Virus genome (UHGV): UHGV-1461890
DNA: 41,432 bases
Source of the DNA: a virus
Direction: 5' to 3' (one strand)
Shown here: one piece after another, positions 1 to 41,432 of the stretch
Layout of the letters: each line of letters begins with the position of its first letter
How positions within the stretch are numbered: the stretch's first letter is position 1
Position numbers and translations under genes: made by a program
Notes under the pieces: model-generated
The model's database searches: none
The model's input: the letters and a program-made list of their open reading frames with translations, nothing else
Told to the model about the DNA's origin: nothing

Positions 1-47
1 CTGGCGATGGCTCTGGCTCTGGCGATGGCTCTGGCTCTGGCGATGGC
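1..47 (+). repeat. 18-bp coding tandem repeat (GGCGATGGCTCTGGCTCT)n at window start, encoding GDGSGS units
   Basis: About 2.5 exact copies of an 18-bp unit sit in frame with the downstream ORF. The same unit family occurs at the window end (41376-41432), and the last 18 nt of the window equal nt 1-18. Confidence 0.8.
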
Positions 48-518
48 ATAAAAGCCATAAATGGCGATACTATCTATCAAATAGACGGCATTGCAACAAT
101 TATAAAACAGGTTAGAAATAACATAGCAAAAGGTTATATTTTCAACGATGATTTATCCTTAACACCTTGCTACATAGTAAAAGGACATAACAAATTTGCT
201 CACGGCGAAACAATCAAAAAGGCTATGGAAGATTTAGAGAATAAAATCTTTGAAGATATGGACACCGATGAAGCGATAGAAATGTTCTTGAAAGAGTTTT
301 CTGACCTTGATAAAAAATATCCAGCTAAAGCATTTTATGTTTGGCACAACCGATTAACAGGCTCCTGTGAAATGGGAAGAAACTTATTCGTAAGGAATGG
401 CGGTTATGACCTTGAAAACGATACCTTCACCGTCAGGGAGTTCATTGAAATAACCAAAAATTCCTTCGGTGCCGACGTCATTAGGCAGTTGGCAGAGAGG
501 ATAGGTGATACCGAATGA
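3..518 (+). CDS. C-terminal portion of a protein with a Gly-Ser-Asp-Tyr low-complexity linker; 5' end lies beyond the window start or across a circular junction
   Basis: The frame is open from nt 3 with no stop codon, through GDGSGS repeats into the 225..518 ORF listed in the track. The stop at 516-518 overlaps the next start (ATGA). Confidence 0.55.
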   Translation, partial: GDGSGSGDGSGSGDGIKAINGDTIYQIDGIATIIKQVRNNIAKGYIFNDDLSLTPCYIVKGHNKFAHGETIKKAMEDLENKIFEDMDTDEAIEMFLKEFSDLDKKYPAKAFYVWHNRLTGSCEMGRNLFVRNGGYDLENDTFTVREFIEITKNSFGADVIRQLAERIGDTE

Positions 519-3397: not shown

Positions 3398-4021
3398 GTG
3401 GATTGGGATTGGAAAAAAGTAAAGTCAGAATATATCACATCAGAAAAGTCAAGCTACAGAAAGCTTGCAGAAAAATATGATATACCACTTGGCACTCTTC
3501 AAAAGAGAGCTAAAAAAGAAAATTGGCCCGACCTCAAAAAACAAAGTGGTGACAGAACGGTTGCAAAAACCATAACAGTCATTGAGAAAAAACAAGTCGA
3601 TAAATTCAAGAGAATTCAAGATATTGCCGACAAGTTGCTCGATAAAATTGAAAAGGCTGTTGATGAGCTTGATATTCATCTTGCAAAGAAAACAATAAAG
3701 ACAAAAGAGATTGAGTATCACAATTATGAAAGACCTGACAAGCCAACGAAGGAAACCATAAACGAAACCGAGGAAATAATTGACTATCACTCTATTATAG
3801 ACCGAAAAGGTGTACAGGAACTTGCTGCCGCAATTAAGAATCTCAAAGAGGTTCAAATGCTTAAATCAGAACTTGATGAAAAAGAGCAAGAGGCACGAAT
3901 TGCTAAGCTCCAAAGGGATGCTGAGATTAACAATAACGATGACAATAAACCTCATGGAGTGGTACTTATGCCTCCTATAATGGACGACTTAACGCCACCG
4001 AAGGAGGAGACAGATGAATAA
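3398..4021 (+). CDS. terS: terminase small subunit
   Basis: GTG start with RBS GAAGGAAGGAG. The N-terminal HTH-like SYRKLAEKYDIPLGTLQKRAKKENW is typical of small terminase subunits. It sits immediately upstream of, and overlaps, the large terminase gene. Confidence 0.7.
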   Translation: MDWDWKKVKSEYITSEKSSYRKLAEKYDIPLGTLQKRAKKENWPDLKKQSGDRTVAKTITVIEKKQVDKFKRIQDIADKLLDKIEKAVDELDIHLAKKTIKTKEIEYHNYERPDKPTKETINETEEIIDYHSIIDRKGVQELAAAIKNLKEVQMLKSELDEKEQEARIAKLQRDAEINNNDDNKPHGVVLMPPIMDDLTPPKEETDE

Positions 4022-5480
4022 CGTTATTTGGTCACCTCAGCCAAGGCAGTTAGAGTTTATGATGCGCCCTGAAAACGAAGCCTTATATGGTGGAGCTGCC
4101 GGTGGTGGTAAATCTGATGCTTTGGTGATTGAAGCCACAAGGCAAGTACACATACCTCATTACAAGGCATTGATACTTCGTAAGACATATCCTCAGTTGA
4201 CCGAACTGATTGAAAAGTCATTAAGATATTATCCATTGGCATTTCCAAAAGCACGATACAATGCATCTGAACACACATGGTACTTCCCAAGTGGCGCAAA
4301 GATAGTATTTGGCTCAATGCAGCATAGCAAGGATAAATTAAACTATCAAGGAAAAGCGTATGATTTCGTCGCATTTGACGAATTAACGCATTTTACCTAT
4401 GAGGAATATATATATCTTTCTTCTCGTAACAGAGCAAATGGGCCGGGGACAAGGGTGTATATGAGAGCAACCGCTAACCCCGGTGGTATCGGACATGGTT
4501 GGGTTAAGGAAAGATTTATAACTGCTGCCGAGCCTATGACTACCATTTGGGAATCAGTTAAGGTTGAACACGAAGGCAAAGTTGAAGAGAGACACCGTTC
4601 GAGAATATTTGTTCCCTCTTCTGTGTTTGATAACAAGATACTTCTTGAGAATGACCCTGATTATCTAACAAGACTTGCATCTATGCCCGAAGCTGAAAGA
4701 AAAGCCTTACTCTATGGTGATTGGGATAGTTACTCAGGACAGTATTTTGCCGAATGGAGAGATAAACCCGAACATTATGACGATAGACAATGGACTCATG
4801 TTATCAATCCATTTAAGATACCTGACCATTGGAAGATATATCGCTCATTTGACTGGGGTTATAACAAACCATTCTCATGTGGTTGGTGGGCCATAGATAC
4901 AGATGGTGTTGCCTACCGTATCCTTGAGTTATATGGATGTACTCAGACCGCTAACGAAGGTCTTAAATGGACAGCAAAGCAGGTATTTGAAGAGATACAT
5001 CGTATAGAGACCGAACACGAATGGCTTAAAGGCAAACGCATTAACGGAGTAGCCGACCCTGCTATATTCTCTGCCGATGGTGGTGAATCAATAGCAGAAT
5101 CAGCTCAAAAGTGCAGAGTTTACTTTACACCGGGTGACCATCAGCGAATACCGGGATGGATGCAGATGCATTATAGGTTAGCATTTGATGAGAATGGATA
5201 CCCGATGATGTATATATTCAAAAACTGCAAAGCATTTATAAGAACGGTACCTACATTGATATACGATGACCACAAGGTAGAGGACCTCAATACAGAGGGT
5301 GAGGACCATATTGCTGACGAAACAAGGTACTTCTGTATGAGTAGACCAATTAAACCGAGGAATGCAAACAAGCCTGATGATTATACAGGCAAGAATCCTC
5401 TCAACATATTCCTTGATATACCTAAAGAGGATATTAAAACAGTTTCTCGTAGACCAACAATAATAATTAACGGAGGATAG
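4014..5480 (+). CDS. terL: terminase large subunit
   Basis: 488 aa with Walker A LYGGAAGGGKSDA near the N-terminus and a C-terminal nuclease-like region with acidic residues. Position between TerS and portal fits the call. Confidence 0.9.
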   Translation: MNNVIWSPQPRQLEFMMRPENEALYGGAAGGGKSDALVIEATRQVHIPHYKALILRKTYPQLTELIEKSLRYYPLAFPKARYNASEHTWYFPSGAKIVFGSMQHSKDKLNYQGKAYDFVAFDELTHFTYEEYIYLSSRNRANGPGTRVYMRATANPGGIGHGWVKERFITAAEPMTTIWESVKVEHEGKVEERHRSRIFVPSSVFDNKILLENDPDYLTRLASMPEAERKALLYGDWDSYSGQYFAEWRDKPEHYDDRQWTHVINPFKIPDHWKIYRSFDWGYNKPFSCGWWAIDTDGVAYRILELYGCTQTANEGLKWTAKQVFEEIHRIETEHEWLKGKRINGVADPAIFSADGGESIAESAQKCRVYFTPGDHQRIPGWMQMHYRLAFDENGYPMMYIFKNCKAFIRTVPTLIYDDHKVEDLNTEGEDHIADETRYFCMSRPIKPRNANKPDDYTGKNPLNIFLDIPKEDIKTVSRRPTIIINGG

Positions 5481-5481
5481 T

Positions 5482-7485
5482 ATGGCTTTATTTAATCGTA
5501 AAAATAAAGGCGAAGAGGCACAGAAGCAGCCTACCAATGAAGAGCAAATGCTCCTGAGACAGTCTGCACCTCAGCCTACTGCCGAAGAAGAGGCTATGAG
5601 GCTAAGGCAAGGCAAGGCTCCTGATGGGAGTATAGATGGCCTTAAAGCACTTGCTCAGGTGATTGGTAGGGAACAGGTACAAAAGGCATATCAGACTCTT
5701 CTCAAGTACAAGGAAGGCAAAGCCAACCTAGAAAAGAGAATAGTTGAGAATGAACAATGGTACAAGCTCAGGCATTGGGAGTGTATGAGAAAGCAAGAGA
5801 GTGAGGTACAGCCTGTATCAGCTTGGTTATTTAACAGTATAGCCAACAAACACGCTGATGCTATGGATAACTTCCCATCACCTAATGTGCTTCCTCGTGA
5901 AGAAGGAGACAAGGCTGAAGCTGAAATGCTTACCTCTATCCTTCCTGTAGTTCTCGACCAGAACGAGTTTGAGCAGACCTATAGTGATGTATGGGATTAC
6001 AAGCTCAAGACAGGTACAGGCGTATATGGTGTCTTTTGGGATAGTTCTAAGCTTAATGGTCTTGGTGATATAGCAATCAAGAAGATTGACCTTATAAATC
6101 TATTCTGGGAGTCAGGCATTACTGATATCCAAAGGTCACGAAACATATTCCATGTAGAACTTGCAGACAATGACATTCTTGTTCAGACATATCCCCAACT
6201 TGCAGGTAAACTTGGAACATCAACCTTAGACCTTAGCAAGTATGTATATGACGATACCGTTGATACCACCGACAAATCGGCTGTTATAGATTGGTACTAC
6301 AAAAAGAATCAGAATGGTAAAAATGTTCTTCATTATTGCAAGTTCGTAAACGATGAGGTACTATTCGCTACCGAAAACGAGCCAAACTTCACCGAAAGAG
6401 GCTGGTATGACCATGGCGAGTATCCGTTTGTATTTGACGTGTTGTTCTCGGTTGCAGGTACTCCTGCCGGATTTGGTTATATAGACGTTGGCAAGGATGC
6501 TCAAGCATACATAGACCGAGGTAGTCAGGCAATTATGAAAAATATGTTAGCCAATGCAGCACCTCGTCACTTTGTCCGTCAGGATGGTGGTGTAAATGAG
6601 GACGAATACACCGACCTCAGCAAAGATTTAGTTCATGTAGATGGCAACCTTGGTCAAGACAGCATTATGGCTATTCAGGGTAAGCCTCTCAGCAATATCT
6701 ATTTGCAGATATTGCATGACAAGATAGATGAACTGAAGGAAACCACAGGAAACCGAGATGTATCTAACGGTGGTACAACATCAGGTGCTACTGCCGCTTC
6801 TGCCATAGCAGCTATGCAAGAGGCAGGCTCTAAGTTATCTAGAGATGCTAATAAATCTGCATATCGTTCATTCAGGAAGCTTTGCCTATTGTCTATTGAG
6901 CTTATCAGACAGTTCTATGACCTACCAAGATGCTTCAGAATCATGGGTGAGAATGGCACAGCAAGATATGTTCAGTATAGCAATGCAGGGATAGCTCCTC
7001 AATCTCAGGGCACAGAGTTTGGTACTGATATGGGATTCAGGATTCCCCTGTTTGATATAGAGGTTACTGCTCAAAAGCAATCACCTTACTCAAAGATGTC
7101 GCAAAATGAACTTGCTTTGCAGTTCTTCGGAGCAGGCTTTTTTAATCCTCAGATAGCAGACCAAGCACTCGCCTGTCTTGACATGATGGACTTTGACAGA
7201 AAAGAGTTCATTATGCAAAAGATTGCTCAAAATGGCGGTATGTATCAGCAGATGATGGCTATGCAGCAACAGATGATAATGTTAGCAAAAATGGTAGACC
7301 AAGCAAGAGGAAGCAATATAGCCGAACAGTTAATGGCTCAATTCTCAGGACAGGCACCTGTACAAGCTATTGATGGTAATGCTCCTAATGTATCGGATAA
7401 AGAGGCATTGGGTGGTGATGGTGGAGAAGCCTCCACAACCAAGAAGGCAAGACAGCGAGTGGTTGAGTCTACTGACCCGACATAG
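5482..7485 (+). CDS. portal protein
   Basis: 667-aa ORF directly after terL with RBS GGAGGA. Call rests on size, position and a Gln/Met-rich C-terminal tail; similarity is not verified. Confidence 0.7.
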   Translation: MALFNRKNKGEEAQKQPTNEEQMLLRQSAPQPTAEEEAMRLRQGKAPDGSIDGLKALAQVIGREQVQKAYQTLLKYKEGKANLEKRIVENEQWYKLRHWECMRKQESEVQPVSAWLFNSIANKHADAMDNFPSPNVLPREEGDKAEAEMLTSILPVVLDQNEFEQTYSDVWDYKLKTGTGVYGVFWDSSKLNGLGDIAIKKIDLINLFWESGITDIQRSRNIFHVELADNDILVQTYPQLAGKLGTSTLDLSKYVYDDTVDTTDKSAVIDWYYKKNQNGKNVLHYCKFVNDEVLFATENEPNFTERGWYDHGEYPFVFDVLFSVAGTPAGFGYIDVGKDAQAYIDRGSQAIMKNMLANAAPRHFVRQDGGVNEDEYTDLSKDLVHVDGNLGQDSIMAIQGKPLSNIYLQILHDKIDELKETTGNRDVSNGGTTSGATAASAIAAMQEAGSKLSRDANKSAYRSFRKLCLLSIELIRQFYDLPRCFRIMGENGTARYVQYSNAGIAPQSQGTEFGTDMGFRIPLFDIEVTAQKQSPYSKMSQNELALQFFGAGFFNPQIADQALACLDMMDFDRKEFIMQKIAQNGGMYQQMMAMQQQMIMLAKMVDQARGSNIAEQLMAQFSGQAPVQAIDGNAPNVSDKEALGGDGGEASTTKKARQRVVESTDPT

Positions 7486-7497
7486 TGAGGTGACTAT

Positions 7498-7842
7498 ATG
7501 ATAAAAGTACAGTTTGAACATCGAAAGGATATAAACACTATCGTTATGAAGGTAGAAGGCCATGCAGGACAAGCCACAAAAGGCAATGATGTTATATGCT
7601 CTGCTGCATCTATCCTCGTATATACGGTAGCACAGTACCTCAACTTTATTTATAAACGAGGAGGCCTTCAGAAGAAGCCTCGTATCCTGCTAAATGACGG
7701 AGATGCGCTGATAGTAGCCAAGCCTAAGAGTGAATTTGAGGGCGAAGTGCTAAACACGTTTTTCGTTGCTGAGGTGGGATACTCGCTACTCGCACACAAT
7801 TACCCACAGTATGTGAAACTTAAAATGTTTGGTGAGGCTTAA
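7498..7842 (+). CDS. prp: Prp-family cysteine protease (ribosomal-processing protease homologue, DUF464)
   Basis: 114 aa with GHAGQATKGNDVICSAAS, placing His22 and Cys34 at the positions of the catalytic dyad of Staphylococcus aureus Prp. Located between portal and scaffold genes. Confidence 0.75.
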   Translation: MIKVQFEHRKDINTIVMKVEGHAGQATKGNDVICSAASILVYTVAQYLNFIYKRGGLQKKPRILLNDGDALIVAKPKSEFEGEVLNTFFVAEVGYSLLAHNYPQYVKLKMFGEA

Positions 7843-7897
7843 AGCCTTAAATATATACCAAAAGTCTCGCTCACTTACGAGCAGAAAGGAAAAATAT

Positions 7898-8863
7898 ATG
7901 ATTCATTTTATCAAACCTATGCACCTAAATCTTCAGCTTTTCGGTGAAGGCACCGGAACAGGTGGAGATGGTGGCACAGGTGCAGAAGGAAGTCAGGGCG
8001 TAACCGAGGTAGCCGCCATACCTCAAATCAAAAGCCGAAAAAGTAATCCTCTTGCTGATACCAAGTATGGTATCCAAGACGATGCAGCACAAGTCGCTGA
8101 TGTGCAAACCAAAGTAACCGATGCAGATGGTGTTACAACTGAAACTGTTGACCGTAATGCTGAATTTGAAAAGCTCATCAAGGGTGAATACAAGGACCTT
8201 TACGATGCCAAAGTTCAGGACACCATTCAAAAAAGGCTTAAAAGCTCAAAGGAAACCGTTGAGAAGTATAACGCTCTCTCCCCTACTCTCGAAATGCTGA
8301 GTAAAAAGTACGGTGTAGATGCTTCTGATATTGATGCCTTAAACAAGGCTATTCAAGAAGACGACTCTTATTATGAGGAAGAGGCCATGGAAAAGGGCAT
8401 CTCCGTACAGCAGTTAAAAGAGATTCGCAGAATGGAAAGAGAAAATGCTGACCTGAAGAGACAAATGCAGGAGCAATCCGTAAAGGAAAATGCTTCAAAA
8501 CTCTACGCTTCGTGGATGAATCAGGCAGAACAGCTTAAAGCGGTTTATCCATCTTTTGACCTTGAAACTGAGATGAGAAATCCAAAATTTGTAGACTTAC
8601 TCCGAGTGCCGAGTATTGATGTAAGAACTGCTTATGAGGTCTTACATAAGGATGAAATAATCCCGGCAGCCATGCAGTTTACTGCTCAGACAGTCGAGCG
8701 TAAACTTGCTAATAAGATAATGGCAAATGGAGCAAGGCCCTCAGAGAATGGTATGAACTCTCAGAGTGCAGCGGTAGTTAAGAGCGATGTGTCACAGCTC
8801 TCCAAAGCCGACCGTCAGGAAATTGCAAGACGTGTCGCACGAGGAGAAAAGATACGATTCTAA
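7898..8863 (+). CDS. scaffolding protein with L27-like N-terminal leader (MIHFIKPMHLNLQLF|GEG)
   Basis: ATG at 7898 with RBS AAAGGA. The N-terminus carries the NLQLF motif resembling the Prp cleavage site. The rest is acidic and coiled-coil-rich and sits upstream of the capsid gene. Confidence 0.65.
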   Translation: MIHFIKPMHLNLQLFGEGTGTGGDGGTGAEGSQGVTEVAAIPQIKSRKSNPLADTKYGIQDDAAQVADVQTKVTDADGVTTETVDRNAEFEKLIKGEYKDLYDAKVQDTIQKRLKSSKETVEKYNALSPTLEMLSKKYGVDASDIDALNKAIQEDDSYYEEEAMEKGISVQQLKEIRRMERENADLKRQMQEQSVKENASKLYASWMNQAEQLKAVYPSFDLETEMRNPKFVDLLRVPSIDVRTAYEVLHKDEIIPAAMQFTAQTVERKLANKIMANGARPSENGMNSQSAAVVKSDVSQLSKADRQEIARRVARGEKIRF

Positions 8864-8926
8864 CTACATCTATCTAATCTCCTTGTAAATACACACAAAT
8901 TACAAAATACAAAGGAGATTAAAACC

Positions 8927-9949
8927 ATGAAAAACATTTTTAAAATCAACCTTCAGCTCTTCGCTGAAATGAACACTCAGGTAACCACACAGTCTTCTCT
9001 CACACCTGAGATGAAGACCTACTATGACATGACCCTCATTGACGAGGCAAGTGCAAAGCTTGTACATGACCAGTTCGGTCAGAAGAAGCCTATTCCAAAG
9101 GGCAGCGGTAAAACCATCGAGTTCCGTAAGTTCTCACCTCTTGGTAAGGCTACCACACCTCTTACTGAAGGTGTTACTCCTAACGGTAACAGCCTGACTG
9201 TAACTGCTATCACCGCTACTGTTGCTCAGTATGGTGACTACATCGTACAGTCTGATGTGCTTGAACTCACCTCTCTCGATAACACAATTATCGAGGCTAC
9301 CAAGCTCTTAGGTAATCAGGCAGGTCTCACTCTTGATACCATCACTCGTAACATTCTTCAGGCAGGTACTAACGTATCATATTGTCCTAAGATTGCTGCT
9401 GACGGTACTGAGACAGAGGTTACATCTCGTGCTACACTCGATGCTACTTGTCAGCTTACTGTTGATATGGTACAGAGAGCAGTAACTAAGCTCAGAGCGC
9501 AGAACGCTCCTACCATTGATGGTGACTATGTTGCTATTATCCATCCTTATGTTGCTTATGACCTCATGAGAGACAAGGAATGGATTGAGGCTCACAAGTA
9601 TGCTACTCCCGAAAACATCTATGCAGGTGAAATCGGCAAGATAGCAGGTTGCCGCTTCGTACAGTCCACCGAGGCTAAAATTTATAAGGGTGATGGTTGT
9701 CCTACAGGCCTTGCTGTATTCGGTACTCTCTTCTTAGGCTCAGGTGCTTATGGTGTAACTGAGATTACAGGCGGTGGTTTGCAGACTATCGTTAAGCAGA
9801 AGGGTTCTGCCGGTACTGCTGACCCACTTGACCAGAGAAGCTCTGTAGGTTGGAAGGCTATTAAGACTGCTGAAAGACTTGTAGAAAACTACATGGTTCG
9901 TGTAGAGTCTTGCTCTAAGAGATACTCTGCAACAGCAGTAGCTAACTAA
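8927..9949 (+). CDS. major capsid protein with L27-like N-terminal leader (MKNIFKINLQLF|AE)
   Basis: 340 aa with RBS AAAGGAGA. It follows the scaffold gene, has the Prp-type leader motif, and is followed by a strong hairpin terminator. Confidence 0.75.
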   Translation: MKNIFKINLQLFAEMNTQVTTQSSLTPEMKTYYDMTLIDEASAKLVHDQFGQKKPIPKGSGKTIEFRKFSPLGKATTPLTEGVTPNGNSLTVTAITATVAQYGDYIVQSDVLELTSLDNTIIEATKLLGNQAGLTLDTITRNILQAGTNVSYCPKIAADGTETEVTSRATLDATCQLTVDMVQRAVTKLRAQNAPTIDGDYVAIIHPYVAYDLMRDKEWIEAHKYATPENIYAGEIGKIAGCRFVQSTEAKIYKGDGCPTGLAVFGTLFLGSGAYGVTEITGGGLQTIVKQKGSAGTADPLDQRSSVGWKAIKTAERLVENYMVRVESCSKRYSATAVAN

Positions 9950-15916: not shown

Positions 15917-18900
15917 ATGGGAGCTAAAGATGTATATGAGCAGTTAAAACGAGAAAAACAACAAGGCAATTCTAAAGCCAAAAAAGTCTACGCTCAAATG
16001 ATGCAATCTAAAATAATAGATGAATTCAATTCTCTTATAAAGCATAATTCGGACTTTTACAATAAAACCAAGTCTCGTTTTTATGACGAAGATGACAACT
16101 TTATAGACATCTATCGTTCTGATTCAGAAGATTGGAAAAACACAGCGGTTTCCATGTCAAGTTCTGCTAGAGAAAAGTCTACAAATATAAGAAGTTTGCT
16201 GGATGAATATGGTTCGTATTATGATGCGGATACTGTATCGAGTATGTTAAAAACCCTTGATGAGCATGAAAAATTCTCTACTGACATTGTAAAACAAGCG
16301 GTAGAACAACATGACTATTTTTCCGAGTATAAAGACGAGAATGACTACAACCAAAAGGTTGTTATACCTAAAAATCAAAATGAAGAGTGGGCCTCAGCCA
16401 ATACTGAGGCTCTGAAAACTGAGATTGGCAACCTTGAAACATCTTATAAGGCATATTCAGAACTTAAATCAAAGAGAAATTTAAGAAGTTCTCAGCTTAT
16501 ATCCAACTATATAAAGTCAGGTTATACGAGAGATGAGGCAGTAAAATTAGCCGCTAAAGACAAGGATATTATCGAATACGATAAAAAGTTATCTGTTTAT
16601 GGAGATATGAGTAATGCTGAAAAATCTCTCTCCGAAAAGAAGCAGTTTTACAACAATGCCACTCGTGTTCAGGAAGGCTTATCTTTAAGCGGAATAACTG
16701 ACCCTTCATCCAAGCACTATGACCCAAATTATCTCAAGTATTCAGCAAAAGGTGAGGCTATGGGTGATGAGAAAAACGGTGGTTTTTTTACACCTGATAC
16801 TCAGCGCAAAAACCAAGTGGCTTACCTCCGTAACAATCCCGATATGTTGGAACTGTATGAAGAAACTGCCAACGATGCTAATGGCGCATCATGGGGAACT
16901 TCCGAAAGAATATTACTAGACCAAATTGAATATAAAGCCGCTAAGTATATGACAGATGAAGAGTTTTTAATTTACAATGCCTACTTAGGCAAGGGAGACA
17001 AAGAATCGGCTGATAAATATTTGGAGAGTATAGAGGAGACTTTAACCTCTCGTCAGGGTGCGGCGATTTCTGAACAGCAAGATACTTGGCTTAAAAAACA
17101 ATTATTTAGCGTTTATGCAGGACTCGACCAATGGGAACAAGGCATTATCAGTTTAGGTAACACCGAAGGAAAATATGACTCCCCTACAGGCGTACAGTTT
17201 GCCTCAGGCACAATAAGAGAAGACTTGGGTGCAATCGGTCAAGGTGCTTATGACTTAGGCGTTACTACAGGAAACATGCTCCCATCCATTTTGGTTTCAT
17301 ATCTCACAAGTGGTGTTGGTGGTGCAGTAGGTTTAGGCGCAAAGGCAGCAGGAACACTAGGCAAAGTAGCCGGTGCCGCAACCTTGGGAAGCTCGGCAGC
17401 AGGTAATGGTTATCAGGAAATGCTCAACCTTGGCTATGATAAGAGTCAGGCACAGGCTTATGGCACTCTTGTAGGCCTTTCCGAAGCAGGTCTTGAGTAT
17501 GTATTGGGTGGTATTTCATCCCTTGGTGGTACGGTTTCAGGTGGCATAACTGACAAGGTCGTTACTAAGTTAGTTTCTAACATGGATAAGGCTATCGCTA
17601 AGGTAGCCATTGGCGCAGGTGGTAAACTTGTAGGTAGTATGGTATCTGAATTTGGAGAAGAATACCTGCAAGAAGTATTAGACCCGGTATTTAAAAACAT
17701 AACGCTTAACACCGATGAGGATATAAGGTTATTCTCCTCCGAGGCTCTTTATGCAGGTATACTAGGTGCATTGTCAGCAGGTTTGCTTGAGGGTGGTTCG
17801 AGTATATCAGGTGAGGTTGCAACCTATAAAGCAGGTAAGGATGTTAAGAACACAGGTCAGTTAAGTAACCTTAAAAAGTTCGGCACATCATTTTCTGCTG
17901 ATACCGTTGCATATAAGATTGCAAGTCAGGTTGATGAGAACACCGATGCTTATACCATAGGTCAGCTGCTACATGAAGTGGGCGCAGATAGTTTATCTGA
18001 AGCAAATATAGCTGACATAGTAAAATCTCTTGAGAGGAAAAACATATCTCCCGAACACGCTCAAACCATTGCTGAGTGGTTAAACGCTTCTGTTCAAGGT
18101 GAGGTATTTAATCCTCTTCAGCGATTAGCTTTAAAAAATCCTGATATAGCACAAACCTTTAAGGATGTTATTATAAACCAGAACTCTACAGTAAATCAAA
18201 GGATGCAGAGTTATACCGACATCCTTCAAAATATCGCCAATGAAAAGGAAATTATAAAGGCTAACAAAAGCAAAGCAAAGGCTGAGAAGAAAGCTAATAA
18301 AACCAAAACAACCGAAGAAACAAAAACTACACCTTTTGTTCCTTTGTCTAATGAAGCAATTACTGCTTCTAAGATAGAATCACTAGCAAAAGAACTTGAA
18401 AGCGAAGGTGTATCACCTGAATTGGCTCAGGTTATGGCTCAGAGGAAGGTTTCTGAATCTTCAGAGGGTAAATCTGTTGCCGATACTGAAAATGCTATAG
18501 AGAACAAATTTGAAACCAATTTAGATGGACAAACACTCAACACAAAAACAGGTGATAGTGTTAATGTGTCTGAAATAGCCTCTATAAAAGATGGCAAAAT
18601 GACCTTAAAACTTGACAATGGTGAAACTGTAGATGCAGACGATATTAGTTTTGGTACTGAAGATGAGGGTTTAATCTATTCGACAGTATTAGACATGGGT
18701 GTTAATGCCGCTGTAGCAAACTCTCTTGTAAAAAATTACAGTCCATCGGACAAGCTCTCAGCAAGACAATATGCTCTTGGCATTAAAGAGGCATATAAGT
18801 ATGGCTCTTATGGTATGCCTATAAACGAAATATCTAAAAACGGTTTTGCCGCTGATTTAAGTGAGGCTCAGAGGACTCATGCCTATAACCTTGGCAAATC

Positions 18901-32110: not shown

Positions 32111-33607
32111 CTAAATATCGTGAAAATAAATAGCTAAATTGCCTTTAGCCTTTTCAAATACAACCTTTTCAATTATTGTGCGTAACGCTTCATTCTTAGC
32201 CCGAGGTGTTACATCTTCCCTTTTTATGAACTCAAGTATGCCTACAACCTTTTCAGAGAAGGCATCTATGTCAATATCCTTAACTATGACCTTATCCCTA
32301 TCCTGCTTTAATTTCTCAATCTTAGTGGTTATTTCAGCCTTATTATTACCATACTGTTCAATGGTATCAATTTCGGCAAGGTAAGCCTCCTTTGCTCTTT
32401 CAAGCCTTCTTTCCTCTAAGGCTATGAGCTTATCATAGTCTATGGTAGGCTTTTCAGTTTGCTTAGGTGCTTTGGGTGTGATGTTAAATTGTTGGCTTCC
32501 TATGGCCTGTTCTAAACCTTTAATAAAGGCGCTTTCTAATTTAATCATACTGATAGAGTGAGATGTGTGACAAGAGCCTCTTGAATAGTTGCAACATTGT
32601 AAGGAGTGTGTTTTTTTCTTTGCAGCAAGATTCCTTGTTCCGTTATAAGCAAGTGTCGCTCCACAAGCACTACATCTAACAAGCCCTTTAAGGATATAAT
32701 CAATAGGTTGCTGCCTCCGAGCATGTTTAGAATACAACAATTTCATAGTTTGCAATCTTTCCTGAACCTTATCCCACAGTTCCATTGATATAAGTGGTTG
32801 CCAATTACCATCAATAATTTGGATGTTTTCATTGAGATAATCCCTTTTACTTACTACCTTTGAACCATCAGGTGTCCATCTGATTTTACCTATATAAGCA
32901 GGATTCCATAAAATATACTCTATCCACCTATTATCAGGTATATTACCTCTTTTGGTACGAACTCCTCTCTGCCCGAGCGAAATTGTAATTTCTCTCATAC
33001 CTTCACCATCAGCAAACCTTTGAAATATTTCTTTGATAACATCGGCAGCACCGCTTTCTACATCGGGAAGATAGGTTTTATCACCATTTATGTATCCAAA
33101 AGGAGCAAATACAGCAGGCTCTCCTCTGCTTACCTTTTCTTCCATGCCTCTTGATACTTCAGCGCCGAGGTTGATAAGGTAAAATTCATCCATCCATTCT
33201 ATAATTCTCTCCATGAGGCTTCCAAAAGGACCTTCAGGTATAGGCTCTGATACAGATTTAACCGATATGCCTATCTTTTGAAGCAAGTTTTTATATACTA
33301 TACTTTGCTCTTGGTTTCTTGCAAAACGAGATAACTTCCACACATATATAATATCAAAGGGATGATTTTTCTCCTTTGCCATGGCTATCATCAAGTTAAA
33401 GTTATCTCTTTTCTTTACGCTCTTTCCTGAGATACCATCATCATAAAATACATACTCATCAGGGATTAAATAACCTTCCCTTGCTGCAAATTCTCTGATT
33501 TTTTTGAGCTGAGAATCAGGACTGTATTCATCTTGCCTTTCATCCGATACACGAACATAGGCAGCTCCTATTTTTAATAATTCGTTTTCCACTTTATCAC
33601 TCCTCAT
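32111..33607 (-). CDS. int: large serine recombinase (integrase)
   Basis: 498 aa. The N-terminal resolvase catalytic domain carries the YVRVSDERQ serine motif. A recombinase domain, a zinc-ribbon C-x2-C...C motif and a C-terminal coiled coil follow. Confidence 0.9.
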   Translation of the reverse strand: MRSDKVENELLKIGAAYVRVSDERQDEYSPDSQLKKIREFAAREGYLIPDEYVFYDDGISGKSVKKRDNFNLMIAMAKEKNHPFDIIYVWKLSRFARNQEQSIVYKNLLQKIGISVKSVSEPIPEGPFGSLMERIIEWMDEFYLINLGAEVSRGMEEKVSRGEPAVFAPFGYINGDKTYLPDVESGAADVIKEIFQRFADGEGMREITISLGQRGVRTKRGNIPDNRWIEYILWNPAYIGKIRWTPDGSKVVSKRDYLNENIQIIDGNWQPLISMELWDKVQERLQTMKLLYSKHARRQQPIDYILKGLVRCSACGATLAYNGTRNLAAKKKTHSLQCCNYSRGSCHTSHSISMIKLESAFIKGLEQAIGSQQFNITPKAPKQTEKPTIDYDKLIALEERRLERAKEAYLAEIDTIEQYGNNKAEITTKIEKLKQDRDKVIVKDIDIDAFSEKVVGILEFIKREDVTPRAKNEALRTIIEKVVFEKAKGNLAIYFHDI

Positions 33608-41352: not shown

Positions 41353-41432
41353 AAGAATTTTTAAAAATTGAACTTGGCTCTGGCTCTGGCTATGGCTCTG
41401 GCTCTGGCGATGGCTCTGGCTATGGCTATGGC
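41340..41432 (+). CDS. N-terminal part of a Gly-Ser-Tyr/Asp repeat protein (MEKIKEFLKIELGSGSGYGSGSGDG...), open to the window end
   Basis: ATG at 41340 overlaps the upstream stop (ATGGAAAAGATAA). The frame stays open through 18-bp repeat units to the last base and is in frame with the ORF at the window start once the 18-nt terminal overlap is applied. Confidence 0.5.
   Translation, partial: MEKIKEFLKIELGSGSGYGSGSGDGSGYGYG
41376..41432 (+). repeat. 18-bp coding tandem repeat variants (GGCTCTGGCTCTGGCKAT / GGCTCTGGCTAT) at the window end
   Basis: Same repeat family as nt 1-47; nt 41404-41421 are identical to nt 1-18. Confidence 0.8.

Follow-up and report, generated by a model that had tools for sequence, protein, structure and literature searches.

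The 41,432-bp virus genome UHGV-1461890, called the window here in its full length, is the whole metagenome contig of a temperate phage. The phage is podovirus-like, and its hosts are Clostridia of the gut (Oscillospiraceae and relatives). On its plus strand is a head-morphogenesis operon with the gene order terS, terL, portal, prp, scaffold and major capsid protein (MCP). Three adjacent genes of this operon are the subject of this article: prp (7498..7842), which encodes a cysteine protease of the Prp family, the scaffold gene (7898..8863) and the MCP gene (8927..9949). Each of the three has a good ribosome-binding site (RBS).

Cellular Prp (MEROPS C108; structures 4PEO/7KLD from Staphylococcus aureus, 2IDL and 2G0I) trims ribosomal protein L27, for which the published motif is MLxx(D/N)LQ(F/L)F'A(S/H)KK (PMC9405229); here and below an apostrophe marks the bond that is cut or predicted to be cut. 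In Staphylococcus phage 80alpha, host Prp processes the capsid protein gp47 and the scaffold gp46 (PMC5744158; PMC9405229). A preliminary description of the window held that its phage, unlike 80alpha, carries its own enzyme, and the presence of prp at 7498..7842 upholds this. Comparison with about 160 relatives indicates that the phage Prp probably matures a leader-tagged scaffold and MCP, and would thereby replace a classical prohead protease, for which there was no Pfam or PHROG match in any window open reading frame (ORF) scanned.

The prp gene and the leaders of the scaffold and capsid proteins

The prp ORF begins with an ATG 13 nt beyond the portal stop codon, with the RBS GAGGTG 8 nt upstream of the ATG, and encodes 114 amino acids, including the active-site stretch VEGHAGQATKGNDVICSAAS. 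The catalytic His22 is encoded by CAT at 7561..7563, within GHAG, and the catalytic Cys34 by TGC at 7597..7599, within DVICSAAS (both on the plus strand, as is the gene). The protein scored 51.6 bits with Pfam PF04327, Peptidase_Prp (gathering cut-off 27; E=1.2e-13; profile positions 1-90), and also matched PHROG 4478, 'peptidase'. With phmmer it matched the solved Prp structures 2idl, 2g0i and 4peo; the alignments with 2IDL (Streptococcus pneumoniae) and 2G0I (S. mutans) run from end to end and place GH22AG and C34 on the catalytic residues. The dyad has the same numbering as in the cellular enzyme (Staphylococcus aureus numbering). Prps are homodimers in which the substrate groove is at the interface.

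A single-chain AlphaFold2 (AF2) model made with 34 homologues had a predicted local distance difference test (pLDDT) score of 92.6 and a predicted template modeling (pTM) score of 0.86. Its sole weak stretch was residues 21-30, the counterpart of a flexible loop in Prp (PMC9405229). A Foldseek search of the PDB gave 14 matches at E<1e-3, every one a Prp chain, with TM scores of 0.58-0.73 and a probability of 1.00 (entries 2g0i, 2idl, 7kld, 7jvs, 1s12 and 4peo, from S. mutans, S. pneumoniae, S. aureus and Thermotoga maritima); the first match beyond these had E=0.05. The profile score above threshold, the aligned dyad and the predicted fold bear out the earlier reading of this ORF as a Prp with His22 and Cys34 in GHAG...DVICSAAS.

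The His and Cys are kept in all 67 aligned full-length sequences, which comprise the window and 66 relatives from the first 80 loci. An exhaustive HMMER search with the window Prp as query yielded 1,263 clusters at E<=1e-3, and in an alignment of the window with 143 cluster representatives the two residues are kept in 143 of the 144 sequences. Twelve NCBIfam Prp equivalog models (PRK14553) gave the window Prp scores of 17-39 bits against cut-offs of 122-225, the best being 39.4 bits against a cut-off of 171, and none of its 143 nearest cluster representatives reached E=1e-30 with these models. Since the equivalog scores are below threshold and the His and Cys are kept, the window Prp is placed in a large divergent clade with an intact dyad. 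By sequence, dyad and predicted fold it is a member of the Prp family and not the cellular ribosomal enzyme. It shares with the latter the Pfam family, the predicted fold and the type of recognition sequence, but it does not lie in an rplU-prp-rpmA operon; its neighbors are the portal and scaffold genes, and its presumed substrates are virion proteins.

Residues 107-114 of the window Prp (7816..7839), outside the Pfam domain, form a tail ending in VKLKMF-GEA. The F-G pair in this tail is similar to P1-P1' at the predicted cut in the scaffold, LQLF'GEG. Tails of the LKMFGEA type are found in 33 of the 144 aligned Prps and at many loci (e.g., TMFGQA, HSFGEAE, KPFGKA). The tail could be what is left of a fusion junction, or it could serve as a pseudo-substrate or for self-trimming; chance is a further possibility.

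The gene for the scaffolding-type protein (7898..8863, plus strand, 321 amino acids) lies between prp and the capsid gene, and its product matches PHROG 13908 with E=2e-90. The longest ORF begins at TTG 7829; the ATG at 7898 is favored by its RBS, AAAGGA, and by agreement with the N-termini of homologues. About 85 N-terminal residues are Gly-rich and predicted to be disordered, and the remainder is all-helical in a single-sequence AF2 model of low confidence. Its position, the PHROG 13908 match and this predicted architecture together suggest that the protein is the scaffold. The MCP gene (8927..9949, plus strand, 340 amino acids; ATG at 8927, RBS AAGGAG) encodes a capsid protein of the N4-gp56 family. 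The match to TIGR04387 (E=3.9e-87) covers residues 20-329, i.e., the part beyond the leader, and there are further matches to PHROG 1357 (E=3.6e-92) and to Pfam Phage_capsid_3 and Phage_capsid_4. The profile matches and AF2, which indicate a scaffold-like, mostly helical protein and the MCP, thus agree with the earlier identification of these two genes as scaffold and capsid genes.

The scaffold leader, M1-F15, is MIHFIKPMHLNLQLF (7898..7942; motif match at 7925..7942) and is followed by GEGTG, with a predicted cut between F15 and G16 (nt 7942 and 7943). The capsid leader, M1-F12, is MKNIFKINLQLF (8927..8962; motif match at 8945..8962) and is followed by AEMNT, which predicts a cut between F12 and A13 (nt 8962 and 8963). 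Both are found where the preliminary description had placed them, ahead of GEG and AE. It had likened them to the N-terminus of L27 and had proposed aligning the protease and its putative substrates with Prp and L27; the catalytic residues align with those of the solved Prps, as described above, and both leaders fit the L27 consensus as well as the 80alpha leaders. The latter are ...LKFNLQFF'ADQS on the scaffold and ...LKLNLQHF'ASNN on the capsid protein (PMC9405229; PMC5744158). In 80alpha and in the window alike, capsid and scaffold proteins carry L27-mimicking leaders of 12-15 residues that end in (N/D)LQxF before A or G; there is no classical prohead protease in 80alpha, and none was detected in the window. 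The two differ in the enzyme, which in 80alpha is the ribosomal Prp of the host and in the window is encoded by a divergent prp gene inside the phage head operon. They differ also in capsid family, which in the window is of the N4-gp56 type, and in virion type, the window having a P22-like portal and being podovirus-like.

The pattern [LIVMF]N[LIVM]Q[LFYMIV]F has exactly two matches in the six frames of the window. One is in the scaffold and the other in the MCP, whose genes are adjacent, and neither extends beyond residue 15. The expected count was 0.18 from residue frequencies and 0.13 from 200 DNA shuffles, and in none of the 200 shuffles were there two or more matches. These counts bear on the explanation that there is no real protease gene, or that the leaders are ordinary hydrophobic N-termini, the likeness being due to chance or to an annotation artefact. 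Nothing speaks for it beyond the shortness of the motif. Against about 0.15 matches expected, two are seen, at the starts of two neighboring genes; the fold is predicted with confidence, and the arrangement is kept at more than 120 loci. This explanation is already contradicted by the data and can safely be set aside.

Prp and leaders among the relatives

Relatives were collected by a capsid-based search, which yielded 80 viral contigs and 80 loci from bacterial genomes. Leaders were called with regular expressions, followed by inspection. The bacterial loci are nearly all from metagenome-assembled genomes (MAGs) of Oscillospiraceae, Faecousia and other Clostridia of animal and human guts; two are from isolates, Gallibacter intestinalis DSM 108706 (L145) and Clostridium sp. 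AF37-5 (L151). Some of the loci are on contigs of up to 260 kb, and they are therefore regarded as prophages of Bacillota. A search of the fetched loci, bacterial flanks included, for an L27-like ORF gave none. Three loci (L107, L115 and L141) are in MAGs labelled, respectively, Candidatus Methanarcanum, an archaeon, Candidatus Treponema caballi and Thermoguttaceae. Because all remaining hosts are Clostridia, these labels are doubted, and the loci are probably binning contaminants that do not indicate real hosts.

A Prp ORF was found between the portal and scaffold genes at 122 loci by a hidden Markov model (HMM) search. Co-occurrence was assessed in the window and the 135 loci for which the presence or absence of Prp was known and the N-terminus of the capsid protein could be read (n=136). 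Prp and a capsid leader were both present in 124, Prp without a leader in none, neither in 9, and a leader only in 3 (Fisher p=7e-12, or 4e-11 after dereplication, values that ignore shared ancestry). Nearly all Prp-carrying relatives have an equivalent leader on the scaffold. Five leader-bearing loci had appeared to be without Prp by blastp; in four of the five, Prp was found by the HMM search. Apparent absence in L143 and L145 was likewise rejected, for both have very divergent Prps that retain GH...C.

Capsid homologues that have neither Prp nor a capsid leader are 66-76% identical to the window MCP. In the capsid family the joint absence occurs at several separate places, namely at L092, L085 and L121 in a capsid tree and, in addition, in a group with an insertion (L150, L154-L157 and L159). 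L144 and L147 are relatives of this group that do carry Prp. The capsid of L092, with neither, is 90.5% identical to that of L137, with both. Two further loci, L095 and L158, whose upstream sequence is missing, are grouped with the leaderless capsids. The leaderless capsids start at the predicted mature N-terminus: they begin 13-22 residues ahead of a conserved EMK motif, relative to which A13 of the window is at -15. As they begin near A13, they support the predicted capsid cleavage site. Bacillus phage Page, the nearest cultured capsid relative (38% identical), has neither Prp nor leaders.

At 25 loci, within the range L054-L080 (e.g., L054, nt 3593-4888), Prp and scaffold are in a single ORF with the junction xDLQLF'AEGG directly beyond the Prp domain. 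Two of these fusions, in L057 and L066, have two motifs, the second copy, AVDLQLF'AATAT, lying 45 residues upstream. The fused ORFs imply that the products in those phages would be self-cleaving protease-scaffold polyproteins. Because they are in frame and carry the motif at the junction, they also provide a link of the 'Rosetta-stone' kind between enzyme and substrate. Protease-scaffold fusion proteins are known from other phages, e.g., gpO of P2 and C/Nu3 of lambda, of which gpO and C are serine proteases. The fused relatives of the window resemble these in having protease and scaffold in one polypeptide with a cleavage site between them. The window itself differs in that its genes are separate, and the cysteine-protease fold of Prp is unrelated to these serine proteases.

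The leaders of scaffold and capsid also vary together. Rare variants that are common to both proteins of one phage include NLQLL, FDIQLF, FIQLF, FIQIF, FDIQRF, LNLRLF'D, xLQLM, HLHLF'D with HLHMF'D, and others. Scaffold and capsid leaders agreed at 442 of 528 positions, compared to 364 +/- 5 in 10,000 permutations. The most divergent leaders accompany the most divergent Prps (L143, L145, L146). On the side of the enzyme, leaders with Ile at P4 (xIQxF; L008, L011, L017, L029, L086, L103, L105, L137 and L144) are often found with D-P-V-C at the Prp active site in place of D-I/L-V-C, and DPVC occurs in no xLQLF phage of the set. Leaders with Asp at P1' (LF'D) are often paired with a GHAxxxPGND loop that is shorter by one residue. 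DPVC and the shortened loop are possible specificity determinants, the link being partial and confounded by ancestry. Taken over the roughly 160 relatives, the Prp gene and the leaders have been gained, lost, changed and fused as one unit.

Cleavage by the phage or the host enzyme

In the mechanism proposed here, the late head operon would supply a dedicated Prp-family protease with a His22/Cys34 dyad, and the scaffold and MCP would both carry, when made, a short leader at the N-terminus. The leader ends in NLQLF and is a copy of the recognition sequence for Prp in L27. The phage Prp would bind residues P6-P1 of each leader and cut beyond the Phe, releasing scaffold from G16 and capsid protein from A13 at around the time of procapsid assembly. 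This system would stand in for a classical prohead protease, and enzyme and tags would form one portable, co-evolving module. Cleavage as such, the exact bond, the timing and the assignment of the main share to the phage rather than the host Prp are predictions made from sequence comparison.

In 80alpha cleavage is dispensable for viability, and an intact scaffold leader is required for assembly (PMC5744158). For this reason the leaders of the window may, by analogy, have a role in folding or assembly ahead of their removal. A more extreme alternative has no proteolysis at all: Prp would bind the tags as a chaperone of assembly, and the mature proteins would keep their leaders. The 80alpha findings (PMC5744158) would suit such a role. 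It is at odds with the His and Cys, whose invariance in the 67 full-length sequences and near-invariance in the 144 point to selection on catalysis, and with the capsids of the leaderless homologues, which are of 'mature' length. The fused proteins, moreover, would require cleavage to free the scaffold. A purely non-proteolytic role is thus very improbable.

The more serious competitor is the host enzyme. As in 80alpha, host Prp might cut the leaders, and the phage Prp would then be redundant or otherwise used, either to top up activity late in infection or to act on host L27 and ribosome maturation. The hosts are Clostridia, including Oscillospiraceae, and for Bacillota (Firmicutes) a prp gene of their own, together with a long L27, has been reported (PMC12324487), so that the host enzyme could cut partly or wholly. 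The window leaders, furthermore, match ordinary Clostridial L27 leaders such as NLQLF'ATKK. Some relatives have leaders and no detectable phage Prp. Three of these are L053, L120 and L140; in L053 and L140 the upstream regions have an odd or degraded appearance. Three others without Prp, L155-L157, retain a leader on the scaffold only, DSIQLF'AA.

In L120 (nt 4923-6981), there is no Prp between portal and scaffold, and the two proteins begin with VFLSLQFF'AEG and RIGYQFF'ANP. These are leaders of the xQFF type, which is typical of many host L27s. L120 is a candidate for 80alpha-like dependence on host Prp inside the same phage family.

Several observations are difficult to reconcile with cleavage by the host alone. 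Prp is always inside the head module, in the interval between portal and scaffold. The leaders vanish together with Prp at several separate places in the capsid family. Leaders such as HLHLF'D, PNLF'G and LNLRLF'D resemble none of the listed leaders of L27 and are found together with divergent phage Prps, and the in-frame fusions bind the enzyme to its scaffold substrate. On balance host Prp is an unlikely explanation for the system as a whole, and maturation by the phage Prp is preferred. The advantage of an own enzyme in a host that contains Prp would possibly be one of supply, of timing, or of freedom to drift from the host L27; the last fits the exotic leader variants.

Besides the loci with leaders and no phage Prp and the presence of Prp in the hosts, three points weigh against maturation by the phage enzyme. 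The support is all comparative, and the adjacency of the three genes means that shared ancestry inflates the statistics of both co-occurrence and co-variation. The assignment of the scaffold comes from position and predicted helicity only. Lastly, since cleavage in 80alpha is dispensable for viability (PMC5744158), the essential role of the leader is perhaps not that of being cut.

Other phages and the remaining features of the window

The same triad of Prp ORF and leader-bearing scaffold and capsid genes is present in the cultured phages Lactococcus TP712 (a prophage of L. lactis MG1363) and PLgT-1, Oenococcus phi9805 and Dorea DO134P1. As in the window, the Prp ORF follows the portal gene, and the scaffold and major head proteins begin with xNLQ(L/R)F'A/S or xLQVF'T; in three of the four phages there is an additional minor-head gene between Prp and scaffold. 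The Prp proteins of phi9805 and PLgT-1 are above the Pfam Prp threshold. The records of these phages either leave prp without annotation or call its product 'peptidase', 'ribosomal protein' or 'unknown'. In DO134P1 (L166, OP172779.1), the Prp-like ORF at nt ~3950-4290, which includes ISGHANYAACGQDIICAGVT, is unannotated in GenBank and is just upstream of a scaffold beginning MANLQLF'AEGDG and a capsid protein beginning MHDIRKLGLQVF'TAPDG. These phages were reached only with the S. pneumoniae Prp as query; tblastn with the window Prp found one unannotated faecal contig only, and megablast of the head module against GenBank phages gave no match. The scaffolds of PLgT-1 and the window showed no significant similarity to each other beyond the leader. 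The triad appears to sit on non-homologous scaffolds in the four cultured phages.

A phage-encoded Prp-like protease that retains GH...C is also present in phage Cp-1. It is the product of orf13, reportedly the capsid-processing protease (Martin et al. 1998). The match of orf13 to PF04327 is weak (E=0.0024) and below threshold. The major head protein of Cp-1 loses an N-terminal extension, as is predicted for the window, but about 40 residues are removed and the N-terminus has no L27-like motif, in contrast to the 12-residue L27-like leader of the window. The capsid protease of Cp-1 is the only other enzyme of MEROPS clan CR (PMC9405229); Cp-1 is called staphylococcal in that paper, but the GenBank record is Streptococcus phage Cp-1.

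Recent papers by the groups that founded the work on Prp place the leader only in 'some staphylococcal bacteriophages' (PMC12324487; preprint 10.64898/2026.08.10.744006). We did not find a phage-encoded Prp paired with L27-like leaders described in the literature, which included the studies of 80alpha, reviews of Prp and pneumococcal preprints of 2025-2026, though Wall et al. 2015 and 2017 may mention phage homologues. The move of the enzyme from host to phage appears to be new, and the arrangement, judged by the loci and phages compared, is widespread rather than unique to the window.

A bolder proposal is that the Prp gene and the L27-like tag form a mobile module of protease plus address label, which phages exchange, retune and discard as a unit. 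The points behind it are the unrelated scaffolds and capsids, the co-evolving specificity variants and the self-cleaving polyprotein versions that some relatives seem to have. It is speculative and at present rather doubtful. If it were true, L27 of the host may be a further target of phage Prp, and infection may thereby affect the maturation of ribosomes. Prp and the L27 extension in the ribosomes of Bacillota and the head-maturation pairs of phages may then be linked by past transfers between phage and cell, in either direction. The reason for a removable L27 extension in Bacillota, and for its copying by staphylococcal phages, has been described as unclear (10.64898/2026.08.10.744006).

The phage family is a natural data set of enzyme and substrate, with more than 100 Prp variants, each with two substrates in cis. 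Together with the natural double deletions of enzyme and tags and the enzyme-substrate fusions, it allows direct tests of Prp specificity and of what the leader does. In annotating genomes of Bacillota phages, many of which have a short gene for a 'peptidase' or hypothetical protein after the portal, this gene becomes readable as a head-maturation protease, and mature capsid N-termini become predictable. There is also relevance to Prp as a proposed antibiotic target: additional genes of the Prp family are present in prophages of lactic acid bacteria and gut Clostridia, and these might substitute for the host enzyme.

The rest of the head operon precedes prp on the plus strand. TerS is encoded at 3398..4021, TerL (Pfam, PHROG) at 4014..5480 and the P22-like portal (Pfam PF16510, E=1e-31; PHROG 156) at 5482..7485. 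The portal has an internal sequence resembling a Prp site, ELALQFF'GAGFF, at residues ~546-550 (7117..7131), and the portal of L095 has ELALQFYGAGFF at the equivalent position. This is probably a structural motif and not a cleavage site. A serine integrase is encoded on the minus strand at 32111..33607, and elsewhere in the window there are two repressor-like genes, an amidase endolysin gene and genes for RecE/RecT, SSB, a methyltransferase and a DnaD-like loader.

One ORF of 3,782 amino acids occupies 15917..27265 on the plus strand and matches PHROG 22978, of unknown function, with E=1e-184. Its residues 2188-2354 are an ART-PolyVal ADP-ribosyltransferase domain (PF18760, E=1.8e-21). The product of this gene of a 41-kb temperate phage resembles a giant 'polyvalent' protein and is presumably virion-borne. 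The two ends of the contig, 1..50 and 41375..41432, share a tandem repeat of the type GGCTCTGGC(G/T)ATGGC that codes for Gly-Ser-Gly runs. Probably a circular or permuted genome was split during assembly, at a point within a gene with repeats whose start is at ~41065.

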